Source of the DNA: Gemmatimonadales bacterium
Lineage (GTDB): Bacteria; Gemmatimonadota; Gemmatimonadetes; Gemmatimonadales; GWC2-71-9
Assembly (NCBI GenBank): GCA_036394755.1
Contig: DASWEL010000006.1
Span: 4,475 to 68,474, forward strand
Reading direction: 5' to 3'
Length of the DNA: 64,000 bases
Part shown: positions 26,700 to 44,059 of the stretch, piece after piece
Numbering within the stretch: position 1 is the first letter of the stretch
Layout: the number at the start of each line of letters is the position of its first letter
Notes under the pieces: generated by a model
What the model saw: the letters and a program-made list of their open reading frames with translations, nothing else
Database searches by the model: none
What the model was told of the DNA's origin: nothing
Position numbers and translations under genes: made by a program

Positions 26700-27384
26700 C
26701 CCACCGCACGCCCGTCGAGTCCGCACATATCACATGCATCCCCTGCGCCACCGCGAGGGCGCGGTCGCACCCCAGCGCGAGCAGCGCCGCCGCCCAGGCG
26801 CTTGCCGTCAGACCGTCCCCCGCCAGCACCGTCACCGAGCGTGCCGCGCCGCGCGGCGCATTGCGCTGCGACGCGGTCCGCACTGAGCCGCCTTGTAGAT
26901 CGACAACCGCCAGCGTGCGCAGCGTGTTGTCGGGATCGGGAATGCCGACCGCCCGGTGTGTCGGACGCGCGGGCGGCGCGTGCGGCCCTACCCAGAGGTA
27001 CTGGCCGCCCAGGTCCAGCAGCGCGCTGTCCACCACATTGGCGAGCGCCAACGCCGCGCGATCGAGCGCATATCCAGGAGCGATGCTGTCGGCCACGAGT
27101 GCGATACCGGTGCGCCGAAGAATCTCGCGCCGCACGGCATCGAGTGCGGCGATCGATACGTGCCGTTGGAGCAGTGAGTCGATGTGATCGACGGAATCGC
27201 GCGCCGCATCCAGGGTGCGCGCAACGCGCGTGCTATCCGTTCCCCACGCGGCGGCGGACATCATCGTCCCCAACTCGGGCCATACGCGCGAGACACCGGG
27301 GCGCGCTTCGGCGTCGCACGCCGCGAGGCTCAAGCACAGCAGAAGATTGATTCTCAAGATGTATAGTTGAATATAGATGCCCAT
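26650..27384 (-). CDS. apbE: FAD:protein FMN transferase (ApbE family) lipoprotein. An alternative TTG start at 27357 gives 'MRINLLLCLSLAAC'.
   Basis: Lipobox 'LSLAAC'. ApbE-like 'IAPGYALDRAA', 'LLDLGGQ' and 'TASAWAAALLALG'. The upstream part of track ORF 26650..27603 would overlap the divergent kinase gene. Confidence 0.75.
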   Translation of the reverse strand: MGIYIQLYILRINLLLCLSLAACDAEARPGVSRVWPELGTMMSAAAWGTDSTRVARTLDAARDSVDHIDSLLQRHVSIAALDAVRREILRRTGIALVADSIAPGYALDRAALALANVVDSALLDLGGQYLWVGPHAPPARPTHRAVGIPDPDNTLRTLAVVDLQGGSVRTASQRNAPRGAARSVTVLAGDGLTASAWAAALLALGCDRALAVAQGMHVICADSTGVRWATGLQNRVSLPPARGP

Positions 27385-29521
27385 GGACCTGCTGCGACAA
27401 CACGCACTGGAGTTCGCGACGATTGCGATCGCCCTGATTTTCGCGGGCGCTGGGCTCGTGTTGTGGCGTTTGCGGCAGCGGTTGCTGCGCTCCGAGCAGG
27501 AGCGGCGCCGCGCCGCCGAAGAGCTCAATCGTCGCCTGTCCGAGCTCTTTTCTCTGCAGGAGCTGTCGTACGTCCTGTCCGACTCGCTCGAGCTGGACCG
27601 CATCGTCGAGCAGGTGGTGCGCTACGCCGTTCGCTTTCTCGACGCGCAGGGCGCGCTGCTGGCGCTGCTGGCGGATGCACCCAGCGATCCCCTGCAGATC
27701 GCCGCTGCCGAAGGCACACTCGCGCCGCTGCGCGGCCAGAAGATCCAGGGAGATGATCCAGGCCTCGTCGCGCGCTCCACGGGCCGGGAGCACCTGGAGC
27801 TGATCCGGAATTCGGGGGCCGCGCCCACGGTCATCGTGAAGGGCTTCGACGCCGCCGCTGCCGCCGCCGTTCCGCTCCGGTCGCACGGGATCGTCATCGG
27901 TACGCTCATCATCACCGACCCCAAGGAAGGCGTGTTCGTCCCGGAGGACATCCGGCTGCTGTCCACCCTGGCGACCCACGCTGCCGTCGTCATCGCGAAC
28001 GCGCGCTTTTTCGAGATGGTCCGGCGCGCCAAGGAGCAGTGGGAGACGGCCTTTGACGCGTTGAGCGAGGGCATCGCGGTCGTGGACGACGAGGGACGGG
28101 TGCGACGCTCGAATCGCGCGCTCGCCAGCCTGCTCAACATGCCGCTGCAGAACGTCGTCGGCACGCCGCTCGGCGAGGCCCTACTCGGCAAGCCGAGCGC
28201 GCTGCAGGAGCTGCTCGCGGCGACGCGGCGCGGCGACCGTCCGGCGCCGCTGGTCGCGCGCTCCGAGCGACTGGGGCGCGCCGTCCGCGTCAACGCCGCC
28301 CGCATTCCGGGCGCGGCGACCGAACAGAGCATCGTCGTGATGGTCGAGGACGTCACGGAGCAGCAGGCCCTCGAAACGCAGCTGGTTCAGAGCGAGAAGC
28401 TGGCGGCCGTCGGCCAGCTCGTCTCCGGCGTCGCCCATGAGCTCAACAATCCGCTGACATCGATCGCGGGGCTGTCGGAGTTCCTGCTCGAACAGAAAGA
28501 GCTCGGCAAGAAGGACCGCGGTCATTTGCAGGTGATTCAGGAACAGGCGGAGCGCGCCAGCCGCATCGTGCGCAATCTCCTCACGTTCGCGCGCAAAGGC
28601 GCGGCCGAGCGCGTGCCGGTCGACTTGAACGACGTGATTCGCCGAACGCTGTCGCTGACGTCGTACGACTTGAAGCTCAAGGACATCGTGGTCGAGCGGG
28701 AGTTGAGCGGCGCGCTGCCCGACGTGTTCGGGGACCGGCATGGCCTGCAGCAGGTCGTGCTGAATCTCGTGACCAACGCGGCCCACGCCGTCGCGGAGAA
28801 CCCACGGGAGCGTCCCCGCGAAATCACCGTGTCGACCTGGTTCGACGGGCAGGTGCACCTGCGCGTCGCGGACACGGGGCCCGGCATTGCCGACGAGATT
28901 GCTCAGAGCGTCTTCACGCCGTTCTTCACGACCAAGGAACCCGGCAAAGGCACGGGCCTCGGCCTCTCGATCACGTATTCGATCGTCGAGAGTCATGGCG
29001 GACAGATCACGCTCGAACCCCGCGGCCCGCGTGGCGGCGCGGCGTTTCGCGTGGACCTGCCTCCCGCGCCGGCCGACGCCGTGCGGCCGGCGCTCACGCC
29101 CGTCCACGGCACGCCGGCCGTCAACGCCGCATCGATGGTGAAGCGCACCATTCTGCTCGTCGACGCGGATCCCGCGGTGCAGCGGACGATCAAGGCGCTG
29201 TTCGCGCGCGACGGCCACGACGTCGAAGTGGCGGGCGATCCGCAGCACGCGCTCGATCTGGCACAGCGCGGCGGCTTTGACCTCGTGATCACCGACGCGC
29301 GCGCGATGGCGCCGGGGAAACGCGGGACGCTGTTGGCGGAGGAATTGGTGACGCGGATGCCGGCGCTGCGGGATCGGATCATCGTCGCCACGGGCGACGT
29401 GCGCCCGACGACGGAAGAGACGCTCGCGCGTCTCGGCGTGCGTTACGTGCGCAAGCCTTTCAACCTGCGCGATCTCCGCGTCGAGGCGGCGCGCTTGTGG
29501 GAGGCGACGGCGCTGTCGTAG
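27377..29521 (+). CDS. Hybrid sensor histidine kinase: TM, GAF, PAS, HisKA, HATPase and a C-terminal receiver domain.
   Basis: H-box 'VAHELNNPLTSI', 'NLVTNAAHAV', 'DTGPGI' and 'GKGTGLGLSI'. Receiver domain 'ILLVDADPAV...DLVITDARAM...KPF'. Confidence 0.85.
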   Translation: MPMDLLRQHALEFATIAIALIFAGAGLVLWRLRQRLLRSEQERRRAAEELNRRLSELFSLQELSYVLSDSLELDRIVEQVVRYAVRFLDAQGALLALLADAPSDPLQIAAAEGTLAPLRGQKIQGDDPGLVARSTGREHLELIRNSGAAPTVIVKGFDAAAAAAVPLRSHGIVIGTLIITDPKEGVFVPEDIRLLSTLATHAAVVIANARFFEMVRRAKEQWETAFDALSEGIAVVDDEGRVRRSNRALASLLNMPLQNVVGTPLGEALLGKPSALQELLAATRRGDRPAPLVARSERLGRAVRVNAARIPGAATEQSIVVMVEDVTEQQALETQLVQSEKLAAVGQLVSGVAHELNNPLTSIAGLSEFLLEQKELGKKDRGHLQVIQEQAERASRIVRNLLTFARKGAAERVPVDLNDVIRRTLSLTSYDLKLKDIVVERELSGALPDVFGDRHGLQQVVLNLVTNAAHAVAENPRERPREITVSTWFDGQVHLRVADTGPGIADEIAQSVFTPFFTTKEPGKGTGLGLSITYSIVESHGGQITLEPRGPRGGAAFRVDLPPAPADAVRPALTPVHGTPAVNAASMVKRTILLVDADPAVQRTIKALFARDGHDVEVAGDPQHALDLAQRGGFDLVITDARAMAPGKRGTLLAEELVTRMPALRDRIIVATGDVRPTTEETLARLGVRYVRKPFNLRDLRVEAARLWEATALS

Positions 29522-29832
29522 GCCTCCGACGGCCAGCCATACGTCGCAAGGTTGACCGCTCCACCCGGTGCGAACCGCACGCCTTCACGCAACAACAACG
29601 CCCGCTGCAGCACCGCGCTGTGATCCTGCCCGGAAAACGAAATGCGGCCCGCGGCGTTGATGACGCGCCACCACGGCACATCGTTGTCTTCGGGGAGTGC
29701 GGAGAGGGCCCAGCCGACCGTGCGGGCGGCGCCGGGGCGACCCGCGAGCCGCGCGATGATCCCGTACGTCGCCACCCGTCCCTTGGGGATGTGACGGACC
29801 ACGCGGTAGATCCGATGATAGAATGGATTCAC
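29443..29832 (-). CDS. MGMT-family DNA-binding protein of the alkyltransferase-like (ATL/YbaZ) type.
   Basis: 'IPKGRVATYGIIA' helix-turn-helix region. 'VPWWRVIN' stands in place of the Ogt/Ada active-site 'PCHRV', so the acceptor Cys is replaced by Trp. Confidence 0.75.
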   Translation of the reverse strand: MNPFYHRIYRVVRHIPKGRVATYGIIARLAGRPGAARTVGWALSALPEDNDVPWWRVINAAGRISFSGQDHSAVLQRALLLREGVRFAPGGAVNLATYGWPSEAYDSAVASHKRAASTRRSRRLKGLRT

Positions 29833-29847: not shown

Positions 29848-30300
29848 CTAGCTTACTCGCAGGACGTCTTCCAGCAAGCCCGCGTCCCCACCCCCCACTA
29901 TTGACAAAATGTCCTCCATTGCTCTCCGCTCTCGCGGCCAGGCGAACCGCCCCGCCGCGTCCCGGGCCTCGAGCCACTCCGCGCGATCGTGCTCCGCCGA
30001 GAGTTTTACGCTCGCGCCGGACGCGACGAACGCGGCGAACACCGGAATCAGCGCCACCTCGTCGCGCGTGTGTTGATAAAACGCTTCCGTGCGGCTGAGA
30101 TTGTAGAATTTGTCCGGCACGAGACCGGTTTCTTCGCGCAGCTCACGCAATGACGCCTGCACCGGCGTCTCGCCGGGCTCGATCGTGCCGTGCACCGTCT
30201 CCCACGATCCGACGTTGCGGCCGTGCGGACCGCGCCGCAGCGCCAGCACCTCGAGCGTCGGCCCCGCTCCGCGCAGGGCGTACGTGTCCACGAAGGACAC
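29848..30300 (-). CDS. NUDIX hydrolase.
   Basis: Nudix box 'GTIEPGETPVQASLRELREETGL' (GX5EX7REUXEEXGU). Confidence 0.85.
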   Translation of the reverse strand: MSFVDTYALRGAGPTLEVLALRRGPHGRNVGSWETVHGTIEPGETPVQASLRELREETGLVPDKFYNLSRTEAFYQHTRDEVALIPVFAAFVASGASVKLSAEHDRAEWLEARDAAGRFAWPRERRAMEDILSIVGGGDAGLLEDVLRVS

Positions 30301-30311
30301 TCGAACGGAAG

Positions 30312-32546
30312 TCAGCGGCGGCGGCCGAGCACGGCTTCGAGACGCGCGGAGAGCGCGCGCGCGCGGAATGGCTTGGTGAGAAAGTCGTCGGCGCCCAGCT
30401 CGAAGACGCGCACTTCGTTGTCTTCGTCGCCTTTCGCAGTCAGTACGATCACGGGAATGTTCGCGGTGGCCGGGCGCGAGCGCAGGTGCGACAGCACGCC
30501 GTAGCCGTCCAGGCCCGGCAGGTTCAAATCGAGCACGATGATGTCGGGCCCTACGCGATCGACCTGATCGAGCGCCTGCACGCCGTCGCGGGCCTCGGTC
30601 ACGGCGTAGCCGTCGCGCTCCAGCAGGTCGCGCATCACTTTGCGCAGGCTATCCTCGTCGTCGACGAGCAGCACCTTCGATGCGGGCTGGCCGTGCGCGC
30701 CAGAGCGCCGCGCGGGCGGCGCGGACTCCTCGAGCAGATCGAAGACCGTAGAGACCGGTGCGGCGGGCTCTGGCGGAGCGCCAACCGTCCCGGCGGCCGG
30801 GCTGCCTCGTACGGCGGCGCTGCCGCGTGAGACGCGCGGCTCTTGCGGCGAAGCTTCCGGTTCGTCGGGAATATCCACCACGCGCGTGAGCTCATCGAGG
30901 GTGGACTCGCCGCGTGCCACATGCGCCAACCCCGAATCCCACAGGGACTTCATCCCGCCGCGTTGCGCGGCCTCCGCGATCCGGTTCGCCGCCTCGCCGG
31001 CGGCGATCAGCCGCTCGAGCTCCGGCGTCATCGTGAGGATTTCGAGAATGGAGAACCGGCCGCGGTACCCCGTCATCGCGCAATCGGGACAGCCCGCGGC
31101 GCGATAGAGCGGCGTCCCCTTGGGAATCCAGCGCCGCAGCCGCTCGGGCGGCGCTTCAATCCAGACTTCCTTGCACGTGGCGCACAACTTCCGCATCAGG
31201 CGCTGCGCCACGACGCCACGCAGCGACGCCGCGATCTTGTACGACTCGACGCCGATGTCGACGAGCCGCGTGACGGCGTTGGCCGCGTCGTTCGTGTGGA
31301 GCGTGGACAGGACCAGGTGTCCGGTGAGCGACGCCTGCACGGCGATCTGTGCCGTTTCCTTGTCGCGAATCTCTCCGACCAACACGACGTTCGGGTCCTG
31401 CCGCAGGATCGAGCGCAGCGCCGCGGCAAAGGTGAGGCCGGCTTTCTCCTGCACTTGCACCTGCACGATCCCCTGCATCCGGTACTCCACCGGGTCTTCG
31501 ACCGTCACGATGTTGACGCCTTCGCTCTTGATCTGATTGATCGCCGAGTAGAGCGTGGTCGTTTTGCCCGAGCCGGTCGGCCCCGTGACGAGCAGGATAC
31601 CCTCGTGGTTCTCGAGCAGCCGCTTGATCGCTTCGGCTTCGCCCGGATTGAGGCCGAGGGTGTCGAGCGACTTGACCGTCGCGCGGGAGTCGAGAATGCG
31701 GATGACGACTTTTTCGCCGAGCTGCGCGGGCAGCGTCGAGACGCGCAGGTCGATCGGCTGGCCGTTCACCGCAACCCGCGCGCGCCCGTCCTGCGGGCGG
31801 AGGCGGTCGGCGATGTCGAGCGAAGACATGATCTTGATCCGCGAGATGAGCGGCAGCCCCGCTTGGCGCGGGATCTTCATGACCTGCCGCAGCACGCCGT
31901 CGATCCGGTAGCGCACCGCCACGCCGCCCTCTTCGGGCTCGACGTGGATATCGCTCGCCCGGGAAAGGATCCCCTCGGAAATGATCATGTCGACGAGGCG
32001 AACGACGGGCTTCTGGCTGGCGTCTGCTTCGGAGATGTTGAGCTCTTCGGGCGCCGGCGCATCCGCCAGGGTCGTGACCTCTTGATCGCCCATCCCCTCG
32101 AGCAGCTTGTCGATCGCCCTGTCCGACCGGTACATCTCATCCAGCTTCTCTCTGATTTTCGATGGCGCCAGCAGGAACAGCCGGATCTCGCGCGCCGTGG
32201 CGAATGCCATCGCCTTTTCGGCGTCGAGATCGAAGGGGTTCGCCGTTCCCAGCTCGAGGAAGGAATCGGTCAGGCGCAGCGGCAGCACGTGGTAGCGGCG
32301 CGCGAGCTGTTCGGGCACGCCATCCCGCGCCGTGATATCGATCTTGGAAGCGTCGCCGATCTTCAGCCGGAAGCGGTGCGACAACTTGTCGATGATCTCA
32401 GAGTCGGTATGGATCTTCTCGGCCACGAGGCATTCCCACAGCGTCCGGCCGGACTCCGACTTTGCCCGGAGCTCCTGGAGGCGCTCGGGCGTCAGGCCCT
32501 CGAGGGACTGGGCCAACCACTCGTCTGGGAAGGCGTTTACGGGCAT
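30312..32546 (-). CDS. GspE/PilB-family type II secretion / type IV pilus ATPase fused to a C-terminal response-regulator receiver domain.
   Basis: N-terminal T2SSE_N-like domain. Walker A 'VTGPTGSGKTTTLY', Walker B 'VLVGEIRD', His box 'GHLVLSTLHTNDA' and tetracysteine 'CATC...CPDC'. A Pro/Ala-rich linker leads to a REC domain 'KVLLVDDEDS...IIVLDLNLPGLDG...TAKG...KPF'. Confidence 0.85.
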   Translation of the reverse strand: MPVNAFPDEWLAQSLEGLTPERLQELRAKSESGRTLWECLVAEKIHTDSEIIDKLSHRFRLKIGDASKIDITARDGVPEQLARRYHVLPLRLTDSFLELGTANPFDLDAEKAMAFATAREIRLFLLAPSKIREKLDEMYRSDRAIDKLLEGMGDQEVTTLADAPAPEELNISEADASQKPVVRLVDMIISEGILSRASDIHVEPEEGGVAVRYRIDGVLRQVMKIPRQAGLPLISRIKIMSSLDIADRLRPQDGRARVAVNGQPIDLRVSTLPAQLGEKVVIRILDSRATVKSLDTLGLNPGEAEAIKRLLENHEGILLVTGPTGSGKTTTLYSAINQIKSEGVNIVTVEDPVEYRMQGIVQVQVQEKAGLTFAAALRSILRQDPNVVLVGEIRDKETAQIAVQASLTGHLVLSTLHTNDAANAVTRLVDIGVESYKIAASLRGVVAQRLMRKLCATCKEVWIEAPPERLRRWIPKGTPLYRAAGCPDCAMTGYRGRFSILEILTMTPELERLIAAGEAANRIAEAAQRGGMKSLWDSGLAHVARGESTLDELTRVVDIPDEPEASPQEPRVSRGSAAVRGSPAAGTVGAPPEPAAPVSTVFDLLEESAPPARRSGAHGQPASKVLLVDDEDSLRKVMRDLLERDGYAVTEARDGVQALDQVDRVGPDIIVLDLNLPGLDGYGVLSHLRSRPATANIPVIVLTAKGDEDNEVRVFELGADDFLTKPFRARALSARLEAVLGRRR

Positions 32547-32596
32547 GAGGCTGCCTCCAAGCTATTACCGAAGGCGCCCGAGTCCAGTATTCCGTA

Positions 32597-34624
32597 TCAC
32601 AGAATGTCCCAAAAATCGCGCGTGATGTCGAAGGCGACACGTATCTGGCGTGTCTGGACCCCGTATCCCGCTTCGAGCCGCAACAGTCCGAGCCATTCCG
32701 CACCGAGTCCCAAGGTCACGCGGCTTCCGGGCGTCGCCTGCCACGGTGTGAGCCCGATCGGCTCCGCGGTCCACCCCCACGCGGCGTAGGGCGCGAGCGT
32801 GATCGTGGCCGGCGTCCGCGCCGGCCCCGCGCTCAGACGAATGAATGGCACGGGAGTGCGCCATTCGATGTGCAAGAGTGCAGCCCGGCGGCCGCCCCAA
32901 TCCCGGAACCCATCGCCCAACAGCGTCCCACGGCCGCCGAGGACAAACGCGCGGTGTGGCGGCAGGTTGCGCGTCGCCAGACCAAACTGCACCCGCGCCA
33001 ACAACCGGCTTGGCCCTGCCCCGACCGGCACGAGCAAGTGCGCCGTCCCACTGAGGCGCGTATAACGCTCGCCGAATTCCAACGTCACCTCGCCGGCGAC
33101 ATCGCGGCGCACGGCGAAGCCCTCGCTGCGGCGCCGCAGGGTCAACGCGGCCGTGGAGTAGTCGCCGTCGTTCACGGCGGGATTGGGACGATAGTGTCCC
33201 GTCGCCGGCGTCGCGTGAACCGCGAGTGATGCGACGTGCTCGTGTGCGGTTGCGAAGCGCCACTCGCCGCGCGCGCCGAGCCCCGAGCGCACGCTGAGCC
33301 GCACGCCCGCCGCACGATAGTAGTCGCCGTAGTCGTCGCCGAATTCCTGCGACGCGATCGAGTTGAGCAGCGGTGCGATCACGGGCGCTTCCCCGATGTC
33401 TCGGACTTGGGCGTACGCCGTCAGCTCGAGCCCGTCGGCGGACGTGAATGCGATGCTGCCCTTCCCCGTCCGGTCGGCAAACCCGTAAGTCCCCAGGCCG
33501 CGGAGCTCGAAGCCATCGTCGGGCGTGCGCCACACGAAACCGGCTCCCACGGCGAGACCCTCCACGCGATTGACGTGGACCAGCTCGCTCAGCGAGCGCG
33601 CCCCGAGGCGTTGGCGTTTGAGCCCCGTGAGCGCGCGGCGGCCCGCGATGCGACTGACTTCGGCACGCACGTGTTGCAGATCGTTCTCGCGCACCGGCTC
33701 GGCGACGTCCTGGATGGCGGCGCTGAGGGTGCTCGGCCACGGAAAGGAATCGCGCTGGGCCTTGGGCAGCGCCGTGATCTCTTCGCCGCGGAAAAAGCTC
33801 GTCTCGAGGCCGAGGTTGAAGACGTAGCTGTCGATCTCCCAGCGTCCGCGGATGATGCCGCGCGCCGGGATGTCGAGCCACGTGGCGCGGCGGCGAATCT
33901 CCACCTCCTGACGGTACGGCAGCCAGAATTGTCCTTCCCAGAGAGCGTTGTCCAGGATGATGCTGACGTCCTCGAGCTGTGGATCCAGATACGCCTTGGG
34001 CGTGAAATTGAACGTCATGCGTACCAGCTCGGCGGATTCGACGTCGACGAAGAGCGTGCCGACGATGGCGGCGGTGCCGAAGTCCTTGGGCCGCACCCGC
34101 AGCGCGACGACGCGCACCGCGCGTTGCGAAAGCACGATCGCCGTCGTGTCGCCCAGGGCAAAGTCGTACCGGTCTGTGCCACCGGGGGCGAGCGGGTGCG
34201 GCACGTCGCGCACTTCGTCGCCCTCACCGAGTCGGATGGCGATGCCGAAGTTGTTCTGCACGATGCCGAGGTGATCGCGGTGGTAGTTGATATCGGTGGG
34301 GAGCTCGGCGCGATCGCGCCAGCCGATGATGCGCTGCTTGCTGAGCTGCGGCGCCTTCCAGTACACTTCCAGCTCCAGCTGATCCGCTTTGACGAGCCGC
34401 GGCGGCTCGGTGAGCCCTTCGCCGAACTGCCCCAGGAAGAAGAGAAAACCGTGAGCTTTGGCCTTGTAGTCGCGCAGCGCTGTGTCGACCGCGGTCTGTG
34501 CCCGGCGGTCTATAGCGCGCCGCGCCAGCGCCAGGGCGGAATCGCTGTTCCAGTCCTGTGCCGCGGCAGCTGGGGGGGTTGCAAGCAGGAGCAAGAGCAC
34601 AGCAGACCAGCGCATTGCCGCCAA
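32597..34624 (-). CDS. Large outer-membrane protein with an Omp85/surface-antigen-like C-terminal beta-barrel (tentative).
   Basis: Signal peptide 'AVLLLLLATPPAAAAQ'. The C-terminal half shows an alternating strand pattern, 'LGGRGTLLGDGF' (resembling the Omp85 'GG..RG(F/Y)' motif) and terminal strands 'LRLEAGYGV...RVAFDI'. Confidence 0.5.
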   Translation of the reverse strand: MAAMRWSAVLLLLLATPPAAAAQDWNSDSALALARRAIDRRAQTAVDTALRDYKAKAHGFLFFLGQFGEGLTEPPRLVKADQLELEVYWKAPQLSKQRIIGWRDRAELPTDINYHRDHLGIVQNNFGIAIRLGEGDEVRDVPHPLAPGGTDRYDFALGDTTAIVLSQRAVRVVALRVRPKDFGTAAIVGTLFVDVESAELVRMTFNFTPKAYLDPQLEDVSIILDNALWEGQFWLPYRQEVEIRRRATWLDIPARGIIRGRWEIDSYVFNLGLETSFFRGEEITALPKAQRDSFPWPSTLSAAIQDVAEPVRENDLQHVRAEVSRIAGRRALTGLKRQRLGARSLSELVHVNRVEGLAVGAGFVWRTPDDGFELRGLGTYGFADRTGKGSIAFTSADGLELTAYAQVRDIGEAPVIAPLLNSIASQEFGDDYGDYYRAAGVRLSVRSGLGARGEWRFATAHEHVASLAVHATPATGHYRPNPAVNDGDYSTAALTLRRRSEGFAVRRDVAGEVTLEFGERYTRLSGTAHLLVPVGAGPSRLLARVQFGLATRNLPPHRAFVLGGRGTLLGDGFRDWGGRRAALLHIEWRTPVPFIRLSAGPARTPATITLAPYAAWGWTAEPIGLTPWQATPGSRVTLGLGAEWLGLLRLEAGYGVQTRQIRVAFDITRDFWDIL

Positions 34625-34633
34625 ATTTAGGGC

Positions 34634-36130
34634 ATGGACCCCCGCGACGCATTCCTGGAGCGCGCCAAGCGTGGCGGAATCGTGCCGGTGATCCGCGAAG
34701 TGGTCACCGATGCCGATACGCCGGTGGCCGCCTTCGCGAAGATCGCGCGGCCGCCGTTCGCGTTTCTGCTCGAATCACTGGTCGGCGGCGAACGCTGGGC
34801 CCGGTACACCTTCCTCGGCACGGAACCTCGGGAAGCGTGGCGGTATCGCGGGCAACGGGTCGACCGCTGGACGCCAGCGTCTGGCTGGGAACAGACGGGC
34901 CAGACGACCGACCCCGTGGCCCACCTCGCCGACCGCCTGCGCGCGCTCCCGAGCGTCGCGCTGCCCGGGTTGCCACGCTTCATGGGCGGCGCGGTCGGAT
35001 ACCTCGGGTACGACGTCGTGCGCAGCATCGAACGTCTCCCCGCGGGCCCCACCGACACGCTCGGCGTGCCCGACGCGGTCGTGATGATCGCGGACTCGCT
35101 CGTGATTCTCGACAACGTGTTCGGTCGCGCCATCGTCGTGGCGAACGTCGAGGTGCCCGCGAAGGCGTCGGCCGCGCAGCGGCTGCGGCTGTACGACGTC
35201 GCGCAGGAGCGGCTCGACACCTTGATCGGGCGCCTGAGCGGGACGCATCAGCTCGCGCCGCTGGCGTTGGACGACGATGGACTCGCGCTGCGGCCGCCCC
35301 CGCAATCGCAGTACGGGCGAGCGGCATTCGAGCGCGATGTCGCCAAGATCCGCGAGTACATCGCCGCAGGCGACGTCTTCCAGGCCGTCCTGTCGCGCCG
35401 GCAGGTCGTGCCGGGTGCGGTCGACCCGCTGCGACTGTACCGGTACCTGCGCGCCCTGAACCCCGCTCCCTATCTCTTCTATCTCACGCTCGACGATCTG
35501 ACGCTCGTCGGGAGCTCGCCTGAGGTGCTGGTCCGGGTCGAAGGCGATGAAGTCACGGTGCGACCCATCGCCGGCACCCGCCCCCGTGGCGCCAGCCCCG
35601 AGGAGGATGAAGCGCTGGCGATGTCGCTGCGCGAGGACGCCAAGGAGCTGGCCGAGCACCGCATGCTCGTCGACCTGGGACGCAACGATGTCGGGCGGGT
35701 GGCGCAGTACGGCACGGTGCGCGTGACAGAATCGCTGCAGATCGAGCGCTACTCGCATGTGCAGCATCTCGTGAGCGAGGTCCGCGGCCGGTTGAGGGAC
35801 GGCTATGACGCGCTCGACGTGTTTCGCGCGTGTTTCCCCGCCGGGACGGTCAGCGGCGCGCCCAAGGTGCGCGCGATGGAGATCATCGACGAGCTGGAGC
35901 CAGAGCGGCGCGGTCCCTATGCGGGGGCGGTCGGCTACGTCGGGTGGGGCGCGACGAGCATGGATACGGCGATCGTGATTCGTTCGGCGCTCGTGCTCAA
36001 GGACCGGGTCGTCGTGCAGGCAGGCGCCGGCATCGTCGCGGACTCAGACCCCTCACGCGAGTTCGCGGAAACCGAGGCCAAGGCACAAGCTGTGCTTCGG
36101 GCGCTCGCGCTGACCAAAGCGGGTGATTAG
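34634..36130 (+). CDS. trpE: Anthranilate synthase component I.
   Basis: 'LLESLVGGERWARYTFLG', 'PAGTVSGAPKVRAMEIIDELE', 'RGPYAGAVGY' and 'AGAGIVADS'. Confidence 0.93.
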   Translation: MDPRDAFLERAKRGGIVPVIREVVTDADTPVAAFAKIARPPFAFLLESLVGGERWARYTFLGTEPREAWRYRGQRVDRWTPASGWEQTGQTTDPVAHLADRLRALPSVALPGLPRFMGGAVGYLGYDVVRSIERLPAGPTDTLGVPDAVVMIADSLVILDNVFGRAIVVANVEVPAKASAAQRLRLYDVAQERLDTLIGRLSGTHQLAPLALDDDGLALRPPPQSQYGRAAFERDVAKIREYIAAGDVFQAVLSRRQVVPGAVDPLRLYRYLRALNPAPYLFYLTLDDLTLVGSSPEVLVRVEGDEVTVRPIAGTRPRGASPEEDEALAMSLREDAKELAEHRMLVDLGRNDVGRVAQYGTVRVTESLQIERYSHVQHLVSEVRGRLRDGYDALDVFRACFPAGTVSGAPKVRAMEIIDELEPERRGPYAGAVGYVGWGATSMDTAIVIRSALVLKDRVVVQAGAGIVADSDPSREFAETEAKAQAVLRALALTKAGD

Positions 36131-37760
36131 TTTCGGGCCTGTGTTCAAACTGCTGAGCACATCCGGCGAACAATCGATCGACCTCCAGCTCGGGCGCAAG
36201 CTCGTGGTGGGGCGGGCGGTCACGAGCGACGTCCCCATCTACGACCCCACGATCTCCCGCCGGCACGCCGAAGTCGTGCTCACCGAAAGCGGCGTCCTAG
36301 TCACCGACCTCGGCTCCTCGAACGGCACATTCCTGAACGGCGCCAAGATCACCGAGGCCGAGGCGGGAGCCAACGACGTCGTGACCTTCGGGAAGGTGGC
36401 ATTTCGTGTCAAAGAGGTGACGGCTCCCCTCCCGCGACCGCACGTCGTGCCCCCCGCCGAATTCGCGAGCCCGAAGCCAGGCGTCAAAGGCGGAGCGGCC
36501 GGCACGATCGTCCGGCAACTGCCGGTCAGCGGCGGCGTCCCGGCGATCGTCATCGATCAGCCGCAAGGCTCCTCGCACCTCAAGGTCCAGGGGCAGAGTC
36601 AGGAGGAGCGGCGCGAGAAGAAGCTCTCCCTGTTGCTCGAAGTGTCGAAGGAGCTGTCGAAGCAGCAGGAGCTCGACCGCCTGCTCGACAAAGTCGTCGA
36701 CTTCACGTTCCAGATCATGAACGTGGACCGCGTCTCGATTCTGCTGCTCGACGGCAAGTCGGATGAGCTGATTCCGCGCATCTCCAAGAGCCGGACGGGC
36801 GACGCCAGCGCCGCCAAGCACGTGCCCCAGTCGATCGCCCGGAAAGCGGTCGAAGAGCGGGTCGCGATTCTGTCGGATAATGCCGCCGCCGACGAGCGCT
36901 TCAAGGGGAAATCGATTCTCATCCAGAGCGTCCGCAGCGCGATGTGCACGCCGCTCATGGGCTCCGACCAGAAGGTCCTGGGCATCCTCTACGTCGACAA
37001 CCTCACCGCGACGCACTCGTTCGCCGACGAGGATCTCGAGTTTCTCATAGCGTTCGGCGGTCTCACGGCGATCGCCATCGAGAACTCGCAGCTCTCGGAA
37101 CGCATCCGCCGCGAGGCGCTCGTGCGCTCGAACTTCGAGCGCTACTTCTCGCCCAACATCGCGTCGGTGATCGCCGAGCAGCAGGATGCCGGGAAGCTGC
37201 CGAGCCAGAAGCAGCCGGTGGTCGTGTTCTTTTCGGACATTCGCGGCTTCACCCCGATGTCGGAAACGATGAACCCCGACGAGATCGCCGGCCTGCTCAC
37301 CGATTACTTCACCGAAATGGTGGACATCGTGTTCGAGCACTCCGGCACGCTCGACAAGTTCATGGGCGACGCCATCATGGCGCTGTGGGGCGCGCCGATC
37401 GGCCACGCCGACGACGCCGACCGCGCCATGCAATGCGCCCTCGACCAGCTCGACACGCTGGAGAAGATGAACGCCAAGTGGAAGGAATCGGGGCGCCAGC
37501 CGCTCGCGATCGGCATCGGCATCAACTACGGCGAGGTCTTTGCCGGCAACGTCGGCTCGAACCGGCGGCTCGAGTACACCGTCATCGGCGACGCGGTGAA
37601 CACCGCCAGCCGGCTCTGCTCATCGGCCGGCGGCAACGAGATTCTGATTTCGGAGCCGTTCTACAAGGCGCTCAAGAAGCCCCCCAAGGTGGAGGCGCTC
37701 GAGCCGATTCAGGTCAAGGGAAAGACGAAGAAGGTGCCGGTCTATCGCGTGAAGCGGTAA
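36123..37760 (+). CDS. FHA - GAF - class III adenylate/guanylate cyclase.
   Basis: FHA 'LVVGRA...ISRRHAEV...GSSNGTFLNG'. A GAF region follows. Cyclase domain 'VVVFFSDIRGFTPMSE', 'KFMGDAIMALWGAP' and 'YTVIGDAVNTASRL'. Confidence 0.85.
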   Translation: MISFGPVFKLLSTSGEQSIDLQLGRKLVVGRAVTSDVPIYDPTISRRHAEVVLTESGVLVTDLGSSNGTFLNGAKITEAEAGANDVVTFGKVAFRVKEVTAPLPRPHVVPPAEFASPKPGVKGGAAGTIVRQLPVSGGVPAIVIDQPQGSSHLKVQGQSQEERREKKLSLLLEVSKELSKQQELDRLLDKVVDFTFQIMNVDRVSILLLDGKSDELIPRISKSRTGDASAAKHVPQSIARKAVEERVAILSDNAAADERFKGKSILIQSVRSAMCTPLMGSDQKVLGILYVDNLTATHSFADEDLEFLIAFGGLTAIAIENSQLSERIRREALVRSNFERYFSPNIASVIAEQQDAGKLPSQKQPVVVFFSDIRGFTPMSETMNPDEIAGLLTDYFTEMVDIVFEHSGTLDKFMGDAIMALWGAPIGHADDADRAMQCALDQLDTLEKMNAKWKESGRQPLAIGIGINYGEVFAGNVGSNRRLEYTVIGDAVNTASRLCSSAGGNEILISEPFYKALKKPPKVEALEPIQVKGKTKKVPVYRVKR

Positions 37761-42915: not shown

Positions 42916-44001
42916 TCAGGCTCGACGCGCTTCCATCGCCCGCGTCGGCAGGCGTAAGGGCTGGAGCTGCGGCGTCGGGATGGGCAGCGACGTTCCCTCG
43001 GCAAACGCGCGCAGGAACGCCTTGACGATCTCGGCATCGAACTGGACGCCCTGCCCCTCCTCGAGCTCCCGCATCGCGTGTTTCACCGGGAGCGACGGGC
43101 GATACGGCCGCACGCTCGTCATCGCGTCGAAGGCGTCAGCGACGCTGACGAGCCGAGCCTCGAACGGGATCTGATCGCCTTTCAGGCTGTCGGGGGAGCC
43201 GGTGCCGTCGAGCCGCTCGTGATGCGAGCGCACGATCGACAGTGCGCCGGGGGCATCGCGCATCAGCGGCCCCAGAATGCGCGCGCCGATCACCGTATGC
43301 TCCATGATGTGGCGGTACTCGGCGTCGGTCAGCTTGCCTGCCTTGTGCAGCACGCTCTCACTGACGCCGATCTTGCCCACGTCATGCAGCTCGGCGCCGA
43401 GCGCGATCGTATCGATGAGGTCCTTATCGAGGCCGAGTGCGCGGGCGATCCCGACAGAGTAGTTGGCAACGCGCATCGAGTGACCGCGCGTGTACGCATC
43501 CTTCGCTTCGAGCGCGAAGACGAGCGCGTGCACACCCTCGAGAAACAGCTCTTCGATGCGCCGCGCCTGCGCCTCGACGCGCTCTTCGAGACCCTGCTGG
43601 TAGTTGCGGTTTTCGATGATGAGCCGGCGCTTGTCGAGCGCCTGCGAAACGCGCGCGCGCACTTCGTCGAGATGAAACGGCTTCGCGACGTAATCGAGCG
43701 CGCCCATTTGCAGGCAGGCCACCGCGCTCTCGACTTCGGCAACGGCGGTCACCACGATGACGGCCGTCTCGGGCCAGCGCGTGGTGATCTCGCGCAGCAG
43801 CGTGACGCCGTCCATTTCCGGCATCCGCAAGTCGGAGATGACCAGCGGCACCGCTCCCTTCTCGAGCTCCCGCAACGCCTCAACTCCGGAGCCGGCCTCG
43901 GCGCACGCGAACCCTTCGCCCTCGAGCAACCGGACGAGCACGCGCCGCAAACGCGGCTCGTCGTCGACGACGAGGCAGCGCATTCCGGAGAAGGGTGGCA
44001 T
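42916..44001 (-). CDS. Response regulator with an HD-GYP-family output domain.
   Basis: REC domain 'MRCLVVDDEPRL...LVISDLRMPEMDG'. HD domain 'ELHDVGKIGV' and 'HHERLDGTGSPD'. The ATG at 44001 is preferred over the TTG at 44034. Confidence 0.85.
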   Translation of the reverse strand: MPPFSGMRCLVVDDEPRLRRVLVRLLEGEGFACAEAGSGVEALRELEKGAVPLVISDLRMPEMDGVTLLREITTRWPETAVIVVTAVAEVESAVACLQMGALDYVAKPFHLDEVRARVSQALDKRRLIIENRNYQQGLEERVEAQARRIEELFLEGVHALVFALEAKDAYTRGHSMRVANYSVGIARALGLDKDLIDTIALGAELHDVGKIGVSESVLHKAGKLTDAEYRHIMEHTVIGARILGPLMRDAPGALSIVRSHHERLDGTGSPDSLKGDQIPFEARLVSVADAFDAMTSVRPYRPSLPVKHAMRELEEGQGVQFDAEIVKAFLRAFAEGTSLPIPTPQLQPLRLPTRAMEARRA

Positions 44002-44059
44002 GGCCCCGCCAAAGTAAAGGTCGCTTGCCCCCAAGGAAAGCCGCCCTTACGTTCCGGCC

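Follow-up and report, generated by a model that had tools for sequence, protein, structure and literature searches.

Gene content and layout of the locus

The window, that is, the whole 64-kb stretch of DNA analysed, contains a run of closely spaced genes on the reverse strand that is centred on a secretion-type ATPase and adjoins a hybrid kinase gene on the forward strand:

27377..29521, forward strand: hybrid histidine kinase gene, GAF-PAS-HisKA-HATPase-REC (Pfam)
29443..29832, reverse strand: ATL protein gene (ATL/Ogt DNA-binding domain), 129 aa (PF01035, 87 bits)
29848..30300, reverse strand: Nudix hydrolase gene, 150 aa (PF00293, 57 bits)
30312..32546, reverse strand: ATPase-REC gene, 744 aa, a PilB/GspE-family assembly ATPase with a C-terminal receiver (MshEN/T2SSE_N - T2SSE - linker - REC)
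32597..34624, reverse strand: Omp85-like outer-membrane protein (OMP) gene, 672/675 aa, signal peptide, distant DUF5686 relative

These open reading frames lay where the original prediction had placed them and showed coding-type composition (GC3 0.83-0.86), with the OMP gene upstream of the ATPase gene and the Nudix and ATL genes downstream in that order, separated by intergenic gaps of 50, 11 and 15 nt in turn. The start of the OMP gene is probably the ATG at 34615, because its homologues measure 672 aa. A GGAGG lies in the 50-nt gap between the OMP and ATPase genes, and the gaps between the OMP, ATPase and Nudix genes gave no match to a terminator or promoter. The OMP gene is likely co-transcribed with the ATPase gene, and one transcript probably covers all four genes up to the ATL gene, which closes the same-strand run and is found in closer relatives only. 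Signalling genes flank the locus (FHA-GAF-cyclase, hybrid kinase and REC-HD-GYP).

The ATPase had been described as an orphan, and this held for the window and for the flanks of the gene in relatives. When 56 further window ORFs were scanned with Pfam, none had a T2SSF, secretin, N_methyl or Peptidase_A24 domain, no prepilin cleavage motif occurred in the six frames of the 64 kb, and genes for PilC/GspF, PilD, pilin, secretin or PilT were absent both from the window and from the 10 kb on either side of the ATPase at 80 species-level loci.

Domain architecture and conservation of the ATPase

Within the 744-aa protein, four segments were delimited on the reverse strand:

32115..32351, reverse strand: MshEN/T2SSE_N-type N-domain, aa 66-144 (PF05157, 53 bits)
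30882..32021, reverse strand: T2SSE core, aa 176-555 (PF00437, 447 bits)
30687..30881, reverse strand: Pro/Ala-rich linker, aa 556-620 (from composition; poorly conserved)
30327..30686, reverse strand: CheY-like receiver (REC), aa 621-740 (PF00072 Response_reg at aa 625-736, 112 bits)

Pfam and motif reading thus agreed on the predicted succession of N-domain, core with all motifs, Pro/Ala linker and receiver. The core carries Walker A (322-329), an Asp box (348-355), Walker B (384-395), a His box (408-420) and the tetracysteine motif as two CxxC pairs (455-458 and 486-489), all read from the sequence; the Walker A lysine and the four cysteines were kept in 79-80 of 89 extracted orthologues. 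The protein is under purifying selection and evolves slowly, as more than 120 homologues were at least 89% identical to it, with the architecture common to all. Its top NCBIfam score was to the GspE model TIGR02533 (563 bits, positions 4-485 of 486), below the cut-off of 630, and the PilB model scored 527 bits against a cut-off of 676; since both equivalog cut-offs were missed, the ATPase is assignable to neither system type by these models. Among PDB matches, PilB reached 385 bits over nearly its full length (query aa 32-557) and GspE 375 bits.

The receiver is canonical, as had been predicted, and looks phosphorylatable by its key residues and their conservation: D629, D630, the phospho-acceptor D673, T703 and K725 are present and were kept in 66-79 of the 89 orthologues, and the PhoB and PleD receivers in the PDB matched it at E values of about 1e-24 to 1e-26. 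Mean identity among the orthologues was 76% for the receiver, 72% for the ATPase core and 31% for the linker (65 aa with 11 Pro and 11 Ala); by this measure, selection on the receiver is as strong as that on the core.

Binding of c-di-GMP by an MshEN-type motif, which had been put forward for examination, found no support. The N-terminal domain is homologous to that of Vibrio cholerae MshE (PDB 5HTL; E 1e-5), yet both 24-residue c-di-GMP motifs (PMC5013675) are degenerate in the ATPase-REC protein. Degenerate motif copies lie in aa 1-65, ahead of the MshEN/T2SSE_N domain; aligned to 5HTL, motif 1 is without its R, L and G, and in motif 2 RLG is replaced by TLW, G by K and Q by R. Even in relaxed form the motif occurred in none of the 89 orthologues, nor in the other REC-fused lineages tested. 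The co-occurrence of MshEN and REC domains was already noted by Wang et al. 2016 (PMC5013675).

Neighbouring genes and the roles they suggest

The Nudix link was the tightest of all. The gene lies immediately downstream of the ATPase gene in 42 of 71 loci and, in most of the remaining ones, still downstream past inserted his genes. In a sister clade whose receiver is lost or degenerate, represented by 48 independent metagenome contigs, the Nudix domain is fused in frame to the ATPase in place of REC, and 42 of these fusions keep Walker A, the Nudix box and both CxxC pairs. It was unexpected that a receiver should be swapped for the downstream hydrolase by in-frame fusion. The receiver is also degenerate at locus P0248. 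Taken with the signalling genes all around the locus, these observations would fit an ATPase that has given up filament assembly for a regulatory or nucleotide-linked enzymatic role. It might, for instance, be a signalling ATPase that acts with the Nudix protein on a nucleotide pool or messenger, where REC and the fused Nudix would be alternative C-terminal modules. We consider this unlikely. Conservation is strict for the motor features of the PilB/GspE family, among them the Zn-binding tetracysteine and the MshEN/T2SSE_N-type domain, and to our knowledge the family has no non-filament role. The Nudix protein, although its Nudix box is intact, gave no equivalog match from which a specificity could be assigned (best NudB, 42 bits against a cut-off of 103), and a deletion that removed REC and joined two neighbouring genes of one transcript could be enough to explain the fusion.

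The hybrid histidine kinase had been mentioned as lying nearby in connection with the cognate kinase. It was indeed kept nearby in most of 80 GTDB loci, but it was missing at the locus in the more distant REC-bearing orthologues; no Hpt domain was seen, and the kinase is a candidate for the kinase of the receiver by proximity only.

The OMP has a signal-peptide-like N-terminus, and its Pfam matches fell below the gathering thresholds (DUF5686 29.5 bits against 39.2; Omp85 16.7 bits against 24). The overall confidence of its AlphaFold model was low (pLDDT 54), with block means mostly of 60-90 and some blocks lower over a barrel at aa ~355-667. Foldseek matched this barrel to those of BamA, TamA, Toc75 and Sam50 (E ~1e-8, target-normalised TM ~0.5) at 11-17% sequence identity. 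The C-terminal half, some 310 aa, therefore models as an Omp85-type barrel, consistent with what had been predicted; the protein differs from the Omp85 superfamily and DUF5686 in its sub-threshold Pfam scores and in that no POTRA domain was detected in its 675 aa, and its N-terminal ~350 aa showed no recognisable fold.

Conservation of the pair as neighbours was confirmed, the OMP gene being directly upstream of the ATPase gene in 57 of 59 GTDB species loci and in most loci of a deeper REC-less clade. This adjacency, the short gaps between three same-strand genes with no terminator or promoter match, and the lack of platform or secretin genes near any locus could be interpreted as a lineage-specific envelope module, in which the Omp85-like protein, the ATPase(-REC) and the Nudix protein serve an outer-membrane process independent of classical pili or type II secretion, given inner-membrane and periplasmic links from outside the three genes. 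We regard such a module as distinctly unlikely. Unrelated neighbours in the block were equally stable (FHA-cyclase/TrpE in 40 of 41 loci, ClpX/ClpP in 23 of 23), and the whole housekeeping block was retained in the deeper clade, so the adjacency is no better conserved than that of these housekeeping genes. About ten ATPase loci had no adjacent OMP gene (L063, L067, L080, L090, L098, L099, L107, L110, L159 and P0248), and none of the 8 loci inspected for ATPase-REC relatives outside the lineage had such an OMP nearby. Moreover, a cytoplasmic hexameric ATPase needs an inner-membrane partner to reach the outer membrane, and the unit encodes none. These results speak against the novel envelope machine that had been considered possible. 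The OMP, Nudix and ATL genes lie in a deeply conserved Gemmatimonadota housekeeping block, the place of the OMP gene beside the ATPase gene looks like a matter of conserved gene order and not of a new machine, and the OMP is a candidate partner at most.

ATPase-REC relatives and the proposed control of filament assembly

When retrieved relatives were clustered at 50% identity, the receiver followed the core in 111 of 161 representatives, at about 40% identity to the 744-aa protein. ATPase-REC proteins are thus a large family of widespread design, and most of the relatives retrieved share their architecture. In a distant bacterium (locus L085), an MshEN-T2SSE-REC gene heads a complete, canonical type IV pilus/T2SS-like operon, followed by Peptidase_A24, T2SSF, three N_methyl pilins, PilM-like, PilO, T2SSC-like, secretin and PilT-like ATPase genes. 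In a second ATPase-REC lineage, labelled Gemmatimonadales, the ATPase-REC gene is operonic with the genes that come after it, which encode a single REC, a membrane protein and a genuine type IV prepilin (RRGFTFVEMLIV...). Gemmatimonadales therefore do possess components of type IV filaments. The family breadth, the operon and the prepilin-linked lineage speak against the original view that the gene pair matches no known system.

That the ATPase is a GspE for protein export by type II secretion and not a pilus extension motor, a sub-case of the filament-ATPase reading and one favoured by the protein's top NCBIfam score and by the T2SSC-like gene and secretin at L085, is quite improbable, as that score is below cut-off, the PDB matches slightly favour PilB, L085 also has the pilus features PilT-like retraction ATPase and PilM/PilO, and the Gemmatimonadales sister lineage adjoins a prepilin and not gsp genes.

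On balance, we favour the reading that the ATPase-REC of this soil Gemmatimonadota bacterium is a type IV filament assembly ATPase that is gated by phosphorylation and whose gene lies away from those for the rest of its machine. The 744-aa protein would be a functional hexameric motor of the PilB/GspE class in the type IV filament superfamily, whose regulatory input would be the cis-fused two-component receiver and not c-di-GMP. A kinase or phosphorelay would phosphorylate Asp673, and the phosphorylated receiver, on its flexible linker of about 65 aa, would change its contact with the ATPase and so gate pilus or pseudopilus assembly.

PilB of Geobacter metallireducens (PDB 5TSG/5ZFR) and Myxococcus xanthus likewise has an MshEN-type domain followed by an N2/C-terminal core with all motifs alike, whereas the ATPase-REC adds the linker and receiver, scores below the PilB equivalog cut-off and is not beside pilC, pilD or pilT. 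GspE/EpsE (Vibrio cholerae EpsE, PDB 1P9R/4KSS) shares the core and Zn motif, but has no such REC, and no gspC/F/L/M or pseudopilin genes lie near the ATPase-REC gene. The proposed logic would resemble that of free CheY-like regulators. PilG (Pil-Chp) and PixG/PixE/PATAN-REC, the latter binding PilB1 in Synechocystis, are reported to exert REC-type control of PilB in trans. A phosphorylatable receiver is paired with a pilus extension ATPase in both cases, and at locus L092 the fusion adjoins CheW/MCP/CheB and single-domain REC genes. By contrast, the receiver studied here is covalently fused to its motor, no chemosensory genes occur in the 64-kb window, and we infer that control would be intramolecular.

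The stable OMP and Nudix neighbours and the Nudix fusion hint at a function that differs from that of ordinary PilB. If the second, prepilin-linked ATPase-REC co-occurs in the same genome, that protein might be the true pilus motor there and the 744-aa protein a diverged paralogue.

On the favoured reading, other loci of the genome would supply the remaining parts of the machine, namely the PilC/GspF platform, the prepilin peptidase, the pilins, the alignment complex and an outer-membrane channel. Such dispersal is usual among T4aP systems, whose genes are commonly spread over multiple loci (PMC6668835). Gemmatimonadota genomes have been reported with type IV pilus genes (PMC10581226), and PilY1 homologues have also been reported in this phylum (PMC13190605).

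Architecture and class of the receiver-fused ATPase

The gene encoding the ATPase with the C-terminal receiver (REC) domain lies in a head-to-tail run of four minus-strand ORFs, all four with a strong GC3 bias of the coding type, in a window of 62–71% G+C.

Minus-strand gene run containing the ATPase-REC gene
32597-34624, (-) strand: Omp85-like outer-membrane protein (OMP), 675 aa, gap to next gene 50 nt
30312-32546, (-) strand: ATPase-REC, 744 aa, gap to next gene 11 nt
29848-30300, (-) strand: Nudix hydrolase, 150 aa, gap to next gene 15 nt
29443-29832, (-) strand: alkyltransferase-like (ATL) protein, 129 aa, last gene of the same-strand run

These ORFs, with gaps of 50 nt and 11 nt, agree with those of the original prediction. 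The 50-nt gap carries a GGAGG 8 nt ahead of the ATPase ATG and gave no match when searched for a terminator or promoter, so that the OMP and ATPase genes are likely co-transcribed. At the other end of the run, the 3' ends of the ATL gene and of a plus-strand hybrid kinase gene overlap convergently by 79 nt (29443-29521), as they also do in four related loci (L001-L004).

Pfam analysis of the ATPase identified an MshEN/T2SSE_N domain (PF05157, aa 66-144, 53 bits against a cut-off of 23), a T2SSE core (PF00437, aa 176-555, 447 bits) and a Response_reg domain (PF00072, aa 625-736, 112 bits). The N-domain aligned with those of MshE, PilB and XpsE, and the core contained Walker A (322-329), Asp box (348-355), Walker B (384-395) and His box (408-420) motifs together with a tetracysteine Zn-binding motif formed by C455, C458, C486 and C489 (CxxC at 455-458 and 486-489). 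A 65-aa linker with 11 Pro and 11 Ala connects the core to the receiver, in which D629 and D630 (acidic pocket), D673 (phospho-acceptor), T703 and K725 were located. The Pfam matches and motif positions bear out the domain succession that had been read from the DNA, from the T2SSE_N-like domain to the REC.

Scores against the NCBIfam equivalogs GspE (TIGR02533, 563.3 bits against 630.25) and PilB (TIGR02538, 527.5 bits against 675.65) did not reach either threshold, and sequence scores against PDB entries were close for PilB (385 bits) and GspE (375 bits). By these scores the window ATPase is classed as a GspE/PilB member belonging to neither equivalog, because it falls under both cut-offs. 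Pfam scans of 56 other window ORFs detected pst/phoU, DnaK, cytochrome oxidase, TF-ClpP-ClpX, TrpE, GlmS, MacB-type efflux and ubiquinone genes and none with T2SSF, secretin, N_methyl or Peptidase_A24 domains, and a search of the window in all frames gave no prepilin cleavage motif. The original observation, an ATPase of this kind with none of the usual secretion or pilus partners in the window, is confirmed, since the architecture is present and both the partner genes and the prepilin motif are absent from the window.

Conservation of the ATPase and its gene block

A conservation scan that took one genome from each GTDB species yielded 80 loci, almost all of them titled as Gemmatimonadales/Gemmatimonadota MAGs, with ATPase-REC orthologues of 56–92% identity that were full length where the contig permitted. 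Homologues of the window ATPase carry the names Gemmatimonadetes or Gemmatimonadales bacterium and originate from soil MAGs; the Gemmatimonadota are an abundant soil phylum that is poorly cultured. Mean identity of 89 extracted orthologues to the window protein was 72% in the core, 76% in the REC, 57% in the MshEN-type domain and 31% in the linker. The Walker A Lys and the four Cys were kept in 79–80 of the 89, and D630, D673, T703 and K725 in 77–79, while position 629 was D in 66 and E in 19. Most of the minority residues in these counts come from approximately nine of the 89 sequences that were mis-framed on extraction. This level of conservation across the orthologues indicates that the receiver is a selected and, judged by its residues, phosphorylatable module. 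A pseudogene or decay reading of the window ATPase is ruled out by the intact motifs and the strong conservation. Within Gemmatimonadota the gene evolves slowly, is inherited vertically and is sited within a housekeeping block, which together suggest an important surface function.

Of the 59 loci with enough upstream sequence, 57 had OMP as the next gene upstream in the same orientation (exceptions L067 and L080), and OMP was also missing at L063. The two genes are thus conserved neighbours, as the original prediction supposed. Other adjacencies in the block were as constant: the FHA-GAF-cyclase/TrpE junction in 40/41 loci, Maf/cyclase in 37/41, ClpX/ClpP in 23/23 and ClpP/trigger factor in 22/22. 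A deeper clade (47–62% identity), reached by scanning metagenomes, keeps the order FHA-cyclase - TrpE / OMP - ATPase - Nudix / ... GTPase ... ClpX. Among the relatives inspected, OMP did not lie beside the ATPase at L063, L067, L080, L090, L098, L099, L107, L110, L159 and the P0248 locus, and it was not seen beside ATPase-REC relatives at the loci inspected outside the window lineage. The OMP-ATPase junction is therefore real and old, and is conserved no better than junctions of plainly unrelated genes. Because those unrelated junctions are equally conserved and OMP is absent from several loci, adjacency provides no argument for a dedicated ATPase/OMP machine. The proposal of a novel ATPase-REC/Omp85 system consequently finds no support, as the whole block is syntenic and ten ATPase loci lack OMP.

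The OMP itself was below threshold in Pfam for both DUF5686 (PF18939, 29.5 bits against 39.2) and Omp85 (16.7 bits against 24) and had no match in NCBIfam; a precomputed PF18939 match exists for about half of its close homologues. An AlphaFold model built on a shallow alignment of 29 homologues (mean pLDDT 54) contained a predicted beta-barrel at aa ~355-667, with block-mean pLDDT mostly 60–90 and some blocks lower, and an N-terminal half of pLDDT <50. Foldseek comparison of this model (mean pLDDT 54) with the PDB returned Omp85-type barrels for all top matches (BamA, TamA, Toc75 and Sam50; E ~1e-8, TM ~0.5 normalised to target). The barrel is predicted to be like that of the Omp85 superfamily (BamA/TamA/TpsB), whereas POTRA domains were not detected: neither Pfam nor NCBIfam found POTRA, Surf_Ag_VNR or ShlB in OMP, of which the N-terminal 350 aa are unmodelled. 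An Omp85-superfamily-like barrel, distantly related to DUF5686, is a fair description of the modelled protein.

Homologues of OMP are 672 aa in length, and for this reason its true start is probably the ATG at 34615. This start would leave 18 nt to the divergent trpE-like gene at 34634, and both promoters would therefore lie inside neighbouring coding regions; in many relatives a gene for a lipoprotein of ~205 aa is inserted between the two. The trpE-like gene (34634-36130, plus strand) encodes a TrpE-type anthranilate synthase component I (512 bits against a TIGR00564 cut-off of 518) and overlaps by 8 nt an FHA-GAF-adenylate/guanylate cyclase gene (36123-37760, plus strand). This odd pair is neighbouring in the 40/41 related loci and also in the deeper clade.

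Nudix association and relatives of the fused ATPase

The Nudix gene product (PF00293, 57 bits) contains the Nudix box GX5EX7REUXEEXGU as GTIEPGETPVQASLRELREETGL. Assignment as NudB or MutT was rejected on scores far below the cut-offs, the best being NudB with 42 bits against 103; none of the subfamily cut-offs was reached, and the Nudix has no assignable specificity. Nudix followed the ATPase immediately in 42 of 71 loci, and in most of the others it was still downstream, after inserted hisC/hisB/hisH, making it the most persistent neighbour of the window ATPase. The his insertion (hisC, hisB and sometimes hisH, on the same strand) marks one subclade comprising L036, L056, L063 and ~25 loci at 62–65% identity.

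A sister clade lacks the receiver and has a Nudix homologue fused in frame to the PilB-like ATPase, as seen in three representative clusters (P0255, P0292 and P0316). Core and Nudix were in one ORF in 48 of 80 independent metagenome contigs, and 42 of these 48 retained Walker A, the canonical Nudix box and both CxxC pairs. The loci concerned are L098-L145, L148-L150, L152, L157, L170 and L173, plus L089, a nanopore contig in which the fusion is interrupted by a frameshift. Additionally, the pseudo-receiver of P0248 is degenerate; a separate Nudix comes after it, and here OMP is absent. A rough neighbour-joining tree without support values placed the fused and P0248 forms as sister to the window clade. 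These fusions may mean that motor and Nudix are functionally linked; they may also represent neutral fusion of adjacent co-transcribed genes following REC deletion. That an in-frame Nudix has repeatedly taken the place of the receiver may point to nucleotide-based control of such motors.

At L090:10001-13519 (P0401, P0244) a window-clade ATPase of 1172 aa with 73% core identity carries extensions of ~140 aa at the N-terminus and ~530 aa at the C-terminus without a Pfam match, has no receiver, and has neither OMP nor Nudix nearby.

Beyond the window clade, an exhaustive HMMER search was carried out over 1.84 billion cluster representatives, with the best 150 matches listed, and the receiver was C-terminal to the core in 111 of 161 such sequences, with full-length identities of typically ~40%. 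The ATPase-REC architecture thus defines a large family and is no local invention. Some members are labelled 'PilB-like protein/CheY-like' by JGI, and MshEN-REC combinations have been mentioned by Wang et al. 2016 (PMC5013675); our literature search for PilB-REC or PilB-Nudix fusions found no paper. The same architecture occurs elsewhere in canonical contexts as well as in orphan ones.

Gene contexts of receiver-fused relatives
L085 (39% G+C), 41% identity: fusion is the first gene of a complete type IV pilus/T2SS-like operon, L085:10001-22239
L092, P0392 (90%-identity cluster of P0262, 43%): after CheW, MCP, CheB, a sigma-54 activator and two single REC genes
L088, P0293, 41% identity: orphan
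L091, P0395 (90%-identity cluster of P0284, 41%): orphan

The L085 operon includes Peptidase_A24, T2SSF, three N_methyl pilins, PilM-like, PilO, T2SSC-like, secretin and PilT-like ATPase genes; immediately upstream of it is a polysaccharide export cluster of the Wza/Wzc/Wzy type, with a sulfotransferase among its genes. In P0272 and P0395 (L091), from other phyla, the ATPase-receiver linker is not a Pro/Ala-rich spacer but contains a double zinc ribbon (DZR), and P0272 extends ~750 aa further.

Partner genes, regulatory input and function

Gemmatimonadales possess a second MshEN-T2SSE-REC lineage (P0253 type; P0253, P0513 and P0431 at L087 and L093-L096, labelled Gemmatimonadales/Gemmatimonadetes by NCBI) that is 48% identical to the window protein. 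Downstream of its ATPase-REC gene come a single REC, a membrane protein of 176-199 aa and a protein of 151-155 aa. The last of these, starting with RRGFTFVEMLIVMIVLG..., is a classic type IV prepilin (RRGFTFVEMLIV...), and L093 carries two membrane-protein/prepilin pairs. No PilC was found within 10 kb of these loci. Type IV filament components do exist in Gemmatimonadales, since a prepilin adjoins this ATPase-REC, and they are scattered, since PilC is missing within that distance. The contig lists of the two lineages, compared at contig level, had none in common, and the prepilin-linked lineage was located elsewhere in the rough tree.

Around the window-type ATPase, no platform protein or pilins were found within +-10 kb in 80 loci, and tblastn searches of 88 loci with the L085 pilus proteins (PilC/GspF, PilD, secretin, PilT and pilins) returned the ATPase as sole match. 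Published surveys point to filaments in the phylum more generally: type IV pilus genes were reported in Gemmatimonadota from all environments except marine (PMC10581226), a general statement on pili whose supplements list no pil or gsp gene names, and PilY1 homologues were also reported (PMC13190605). Denise et al. contains nothing on Gemmatimonadota.

From these data we infer that the window ATPase would be a working assembly ATPase in a type IV filament machine of the pilus or T2SS-like kind, that phosphorylation of its own receiver would gate either its activity or how it engages the platform, and that the other machine parts, PilC/GspF among them, would be encoded elsewhere in the genome. 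We regard this reading, a receiver-gated filament assembly ATPase encoded apart from its machine, as rather probable. Receiver control would here act in cis, as a counterpart of PilG/PixG-type control of PilB. It is considerably less credible, and in our judgement improbable, that the Omp85-like protein, PilB-like ATPase and Nudix form a phylum-specific unit, in which a receiver- or Nudix-gated filament-type motor would drive or govern an outer-membrane process separate from classical pili and T2SS, with the prepilin-linked lineage as the ordinary pilus motor. The window gene is best filed as an unstudied receiver-fused PilB/GspE-type motor within a housekeeping block that is conserved across the phylum.

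Known tuning inputs of PilB/GspE motors are c-di-GMP, which acts via MshEN, FimX or PilZ partners, and CheY-like proteins that are not fused to the motor. A check for an MshEN-type c-di-GMP motif had been suggested for the N-domain, and the motif proved to be absent. It consists of two tandem 24-residue RLGxx(L/V/I)(L/V/I)xxG(L/V/I)(L/V/I)xxxxLxxxLxxQ units (PMC5013675). Although the N-terminal region of the window ATPase could be aligned with MshE of V. cholerae (5HTL, E 1e-5), the key residues for contacting c-di-GMP were substituted: R, L and G are missing from motif 1, and motif 2 shows RLG->TLW, G->K and Q->R. A relaxed form of the published motif matched 0/89 orthologues, and none in the second (P0253-type) lineage and the distant fusions tested, while the MshE control matched. 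Binding of c-di-GMP by the window N-domain was rejected on these motif grounds. A large, apparently unstudied family in which the receiver is fused to the motor and the c-di-GMP motif is lost would be a simple system in which direct two-component control of a type IV filament machine could be tested. The residual novelty lies in this family-wide swap of c-di-GMP for a fused receiver, in the Nudix fusions and in the constancy of the OMP neighbour.

As a candidate partner for the receiver, the hybrid kinase (27377-29521) is suggested by proximity alone, being 0.8 kb from the ATPase and staying nearby in most close relatives. Little weight is placed on it, because no Hpt domain was found in it and it is missing at the locus in REC-bearing orthologues of 57–60% identity; as the cognate kinase it was set aside, not being kept in deeper clades. 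Signalling genes are abundant in the window, including a REC-HD-GYP (RpfG-like) response regulator (42916-44034, minus strand) 10 kb from the ATPase, the FHA-GAF-cyclase and two histidine kinases (11-1684 and 27377-29521).
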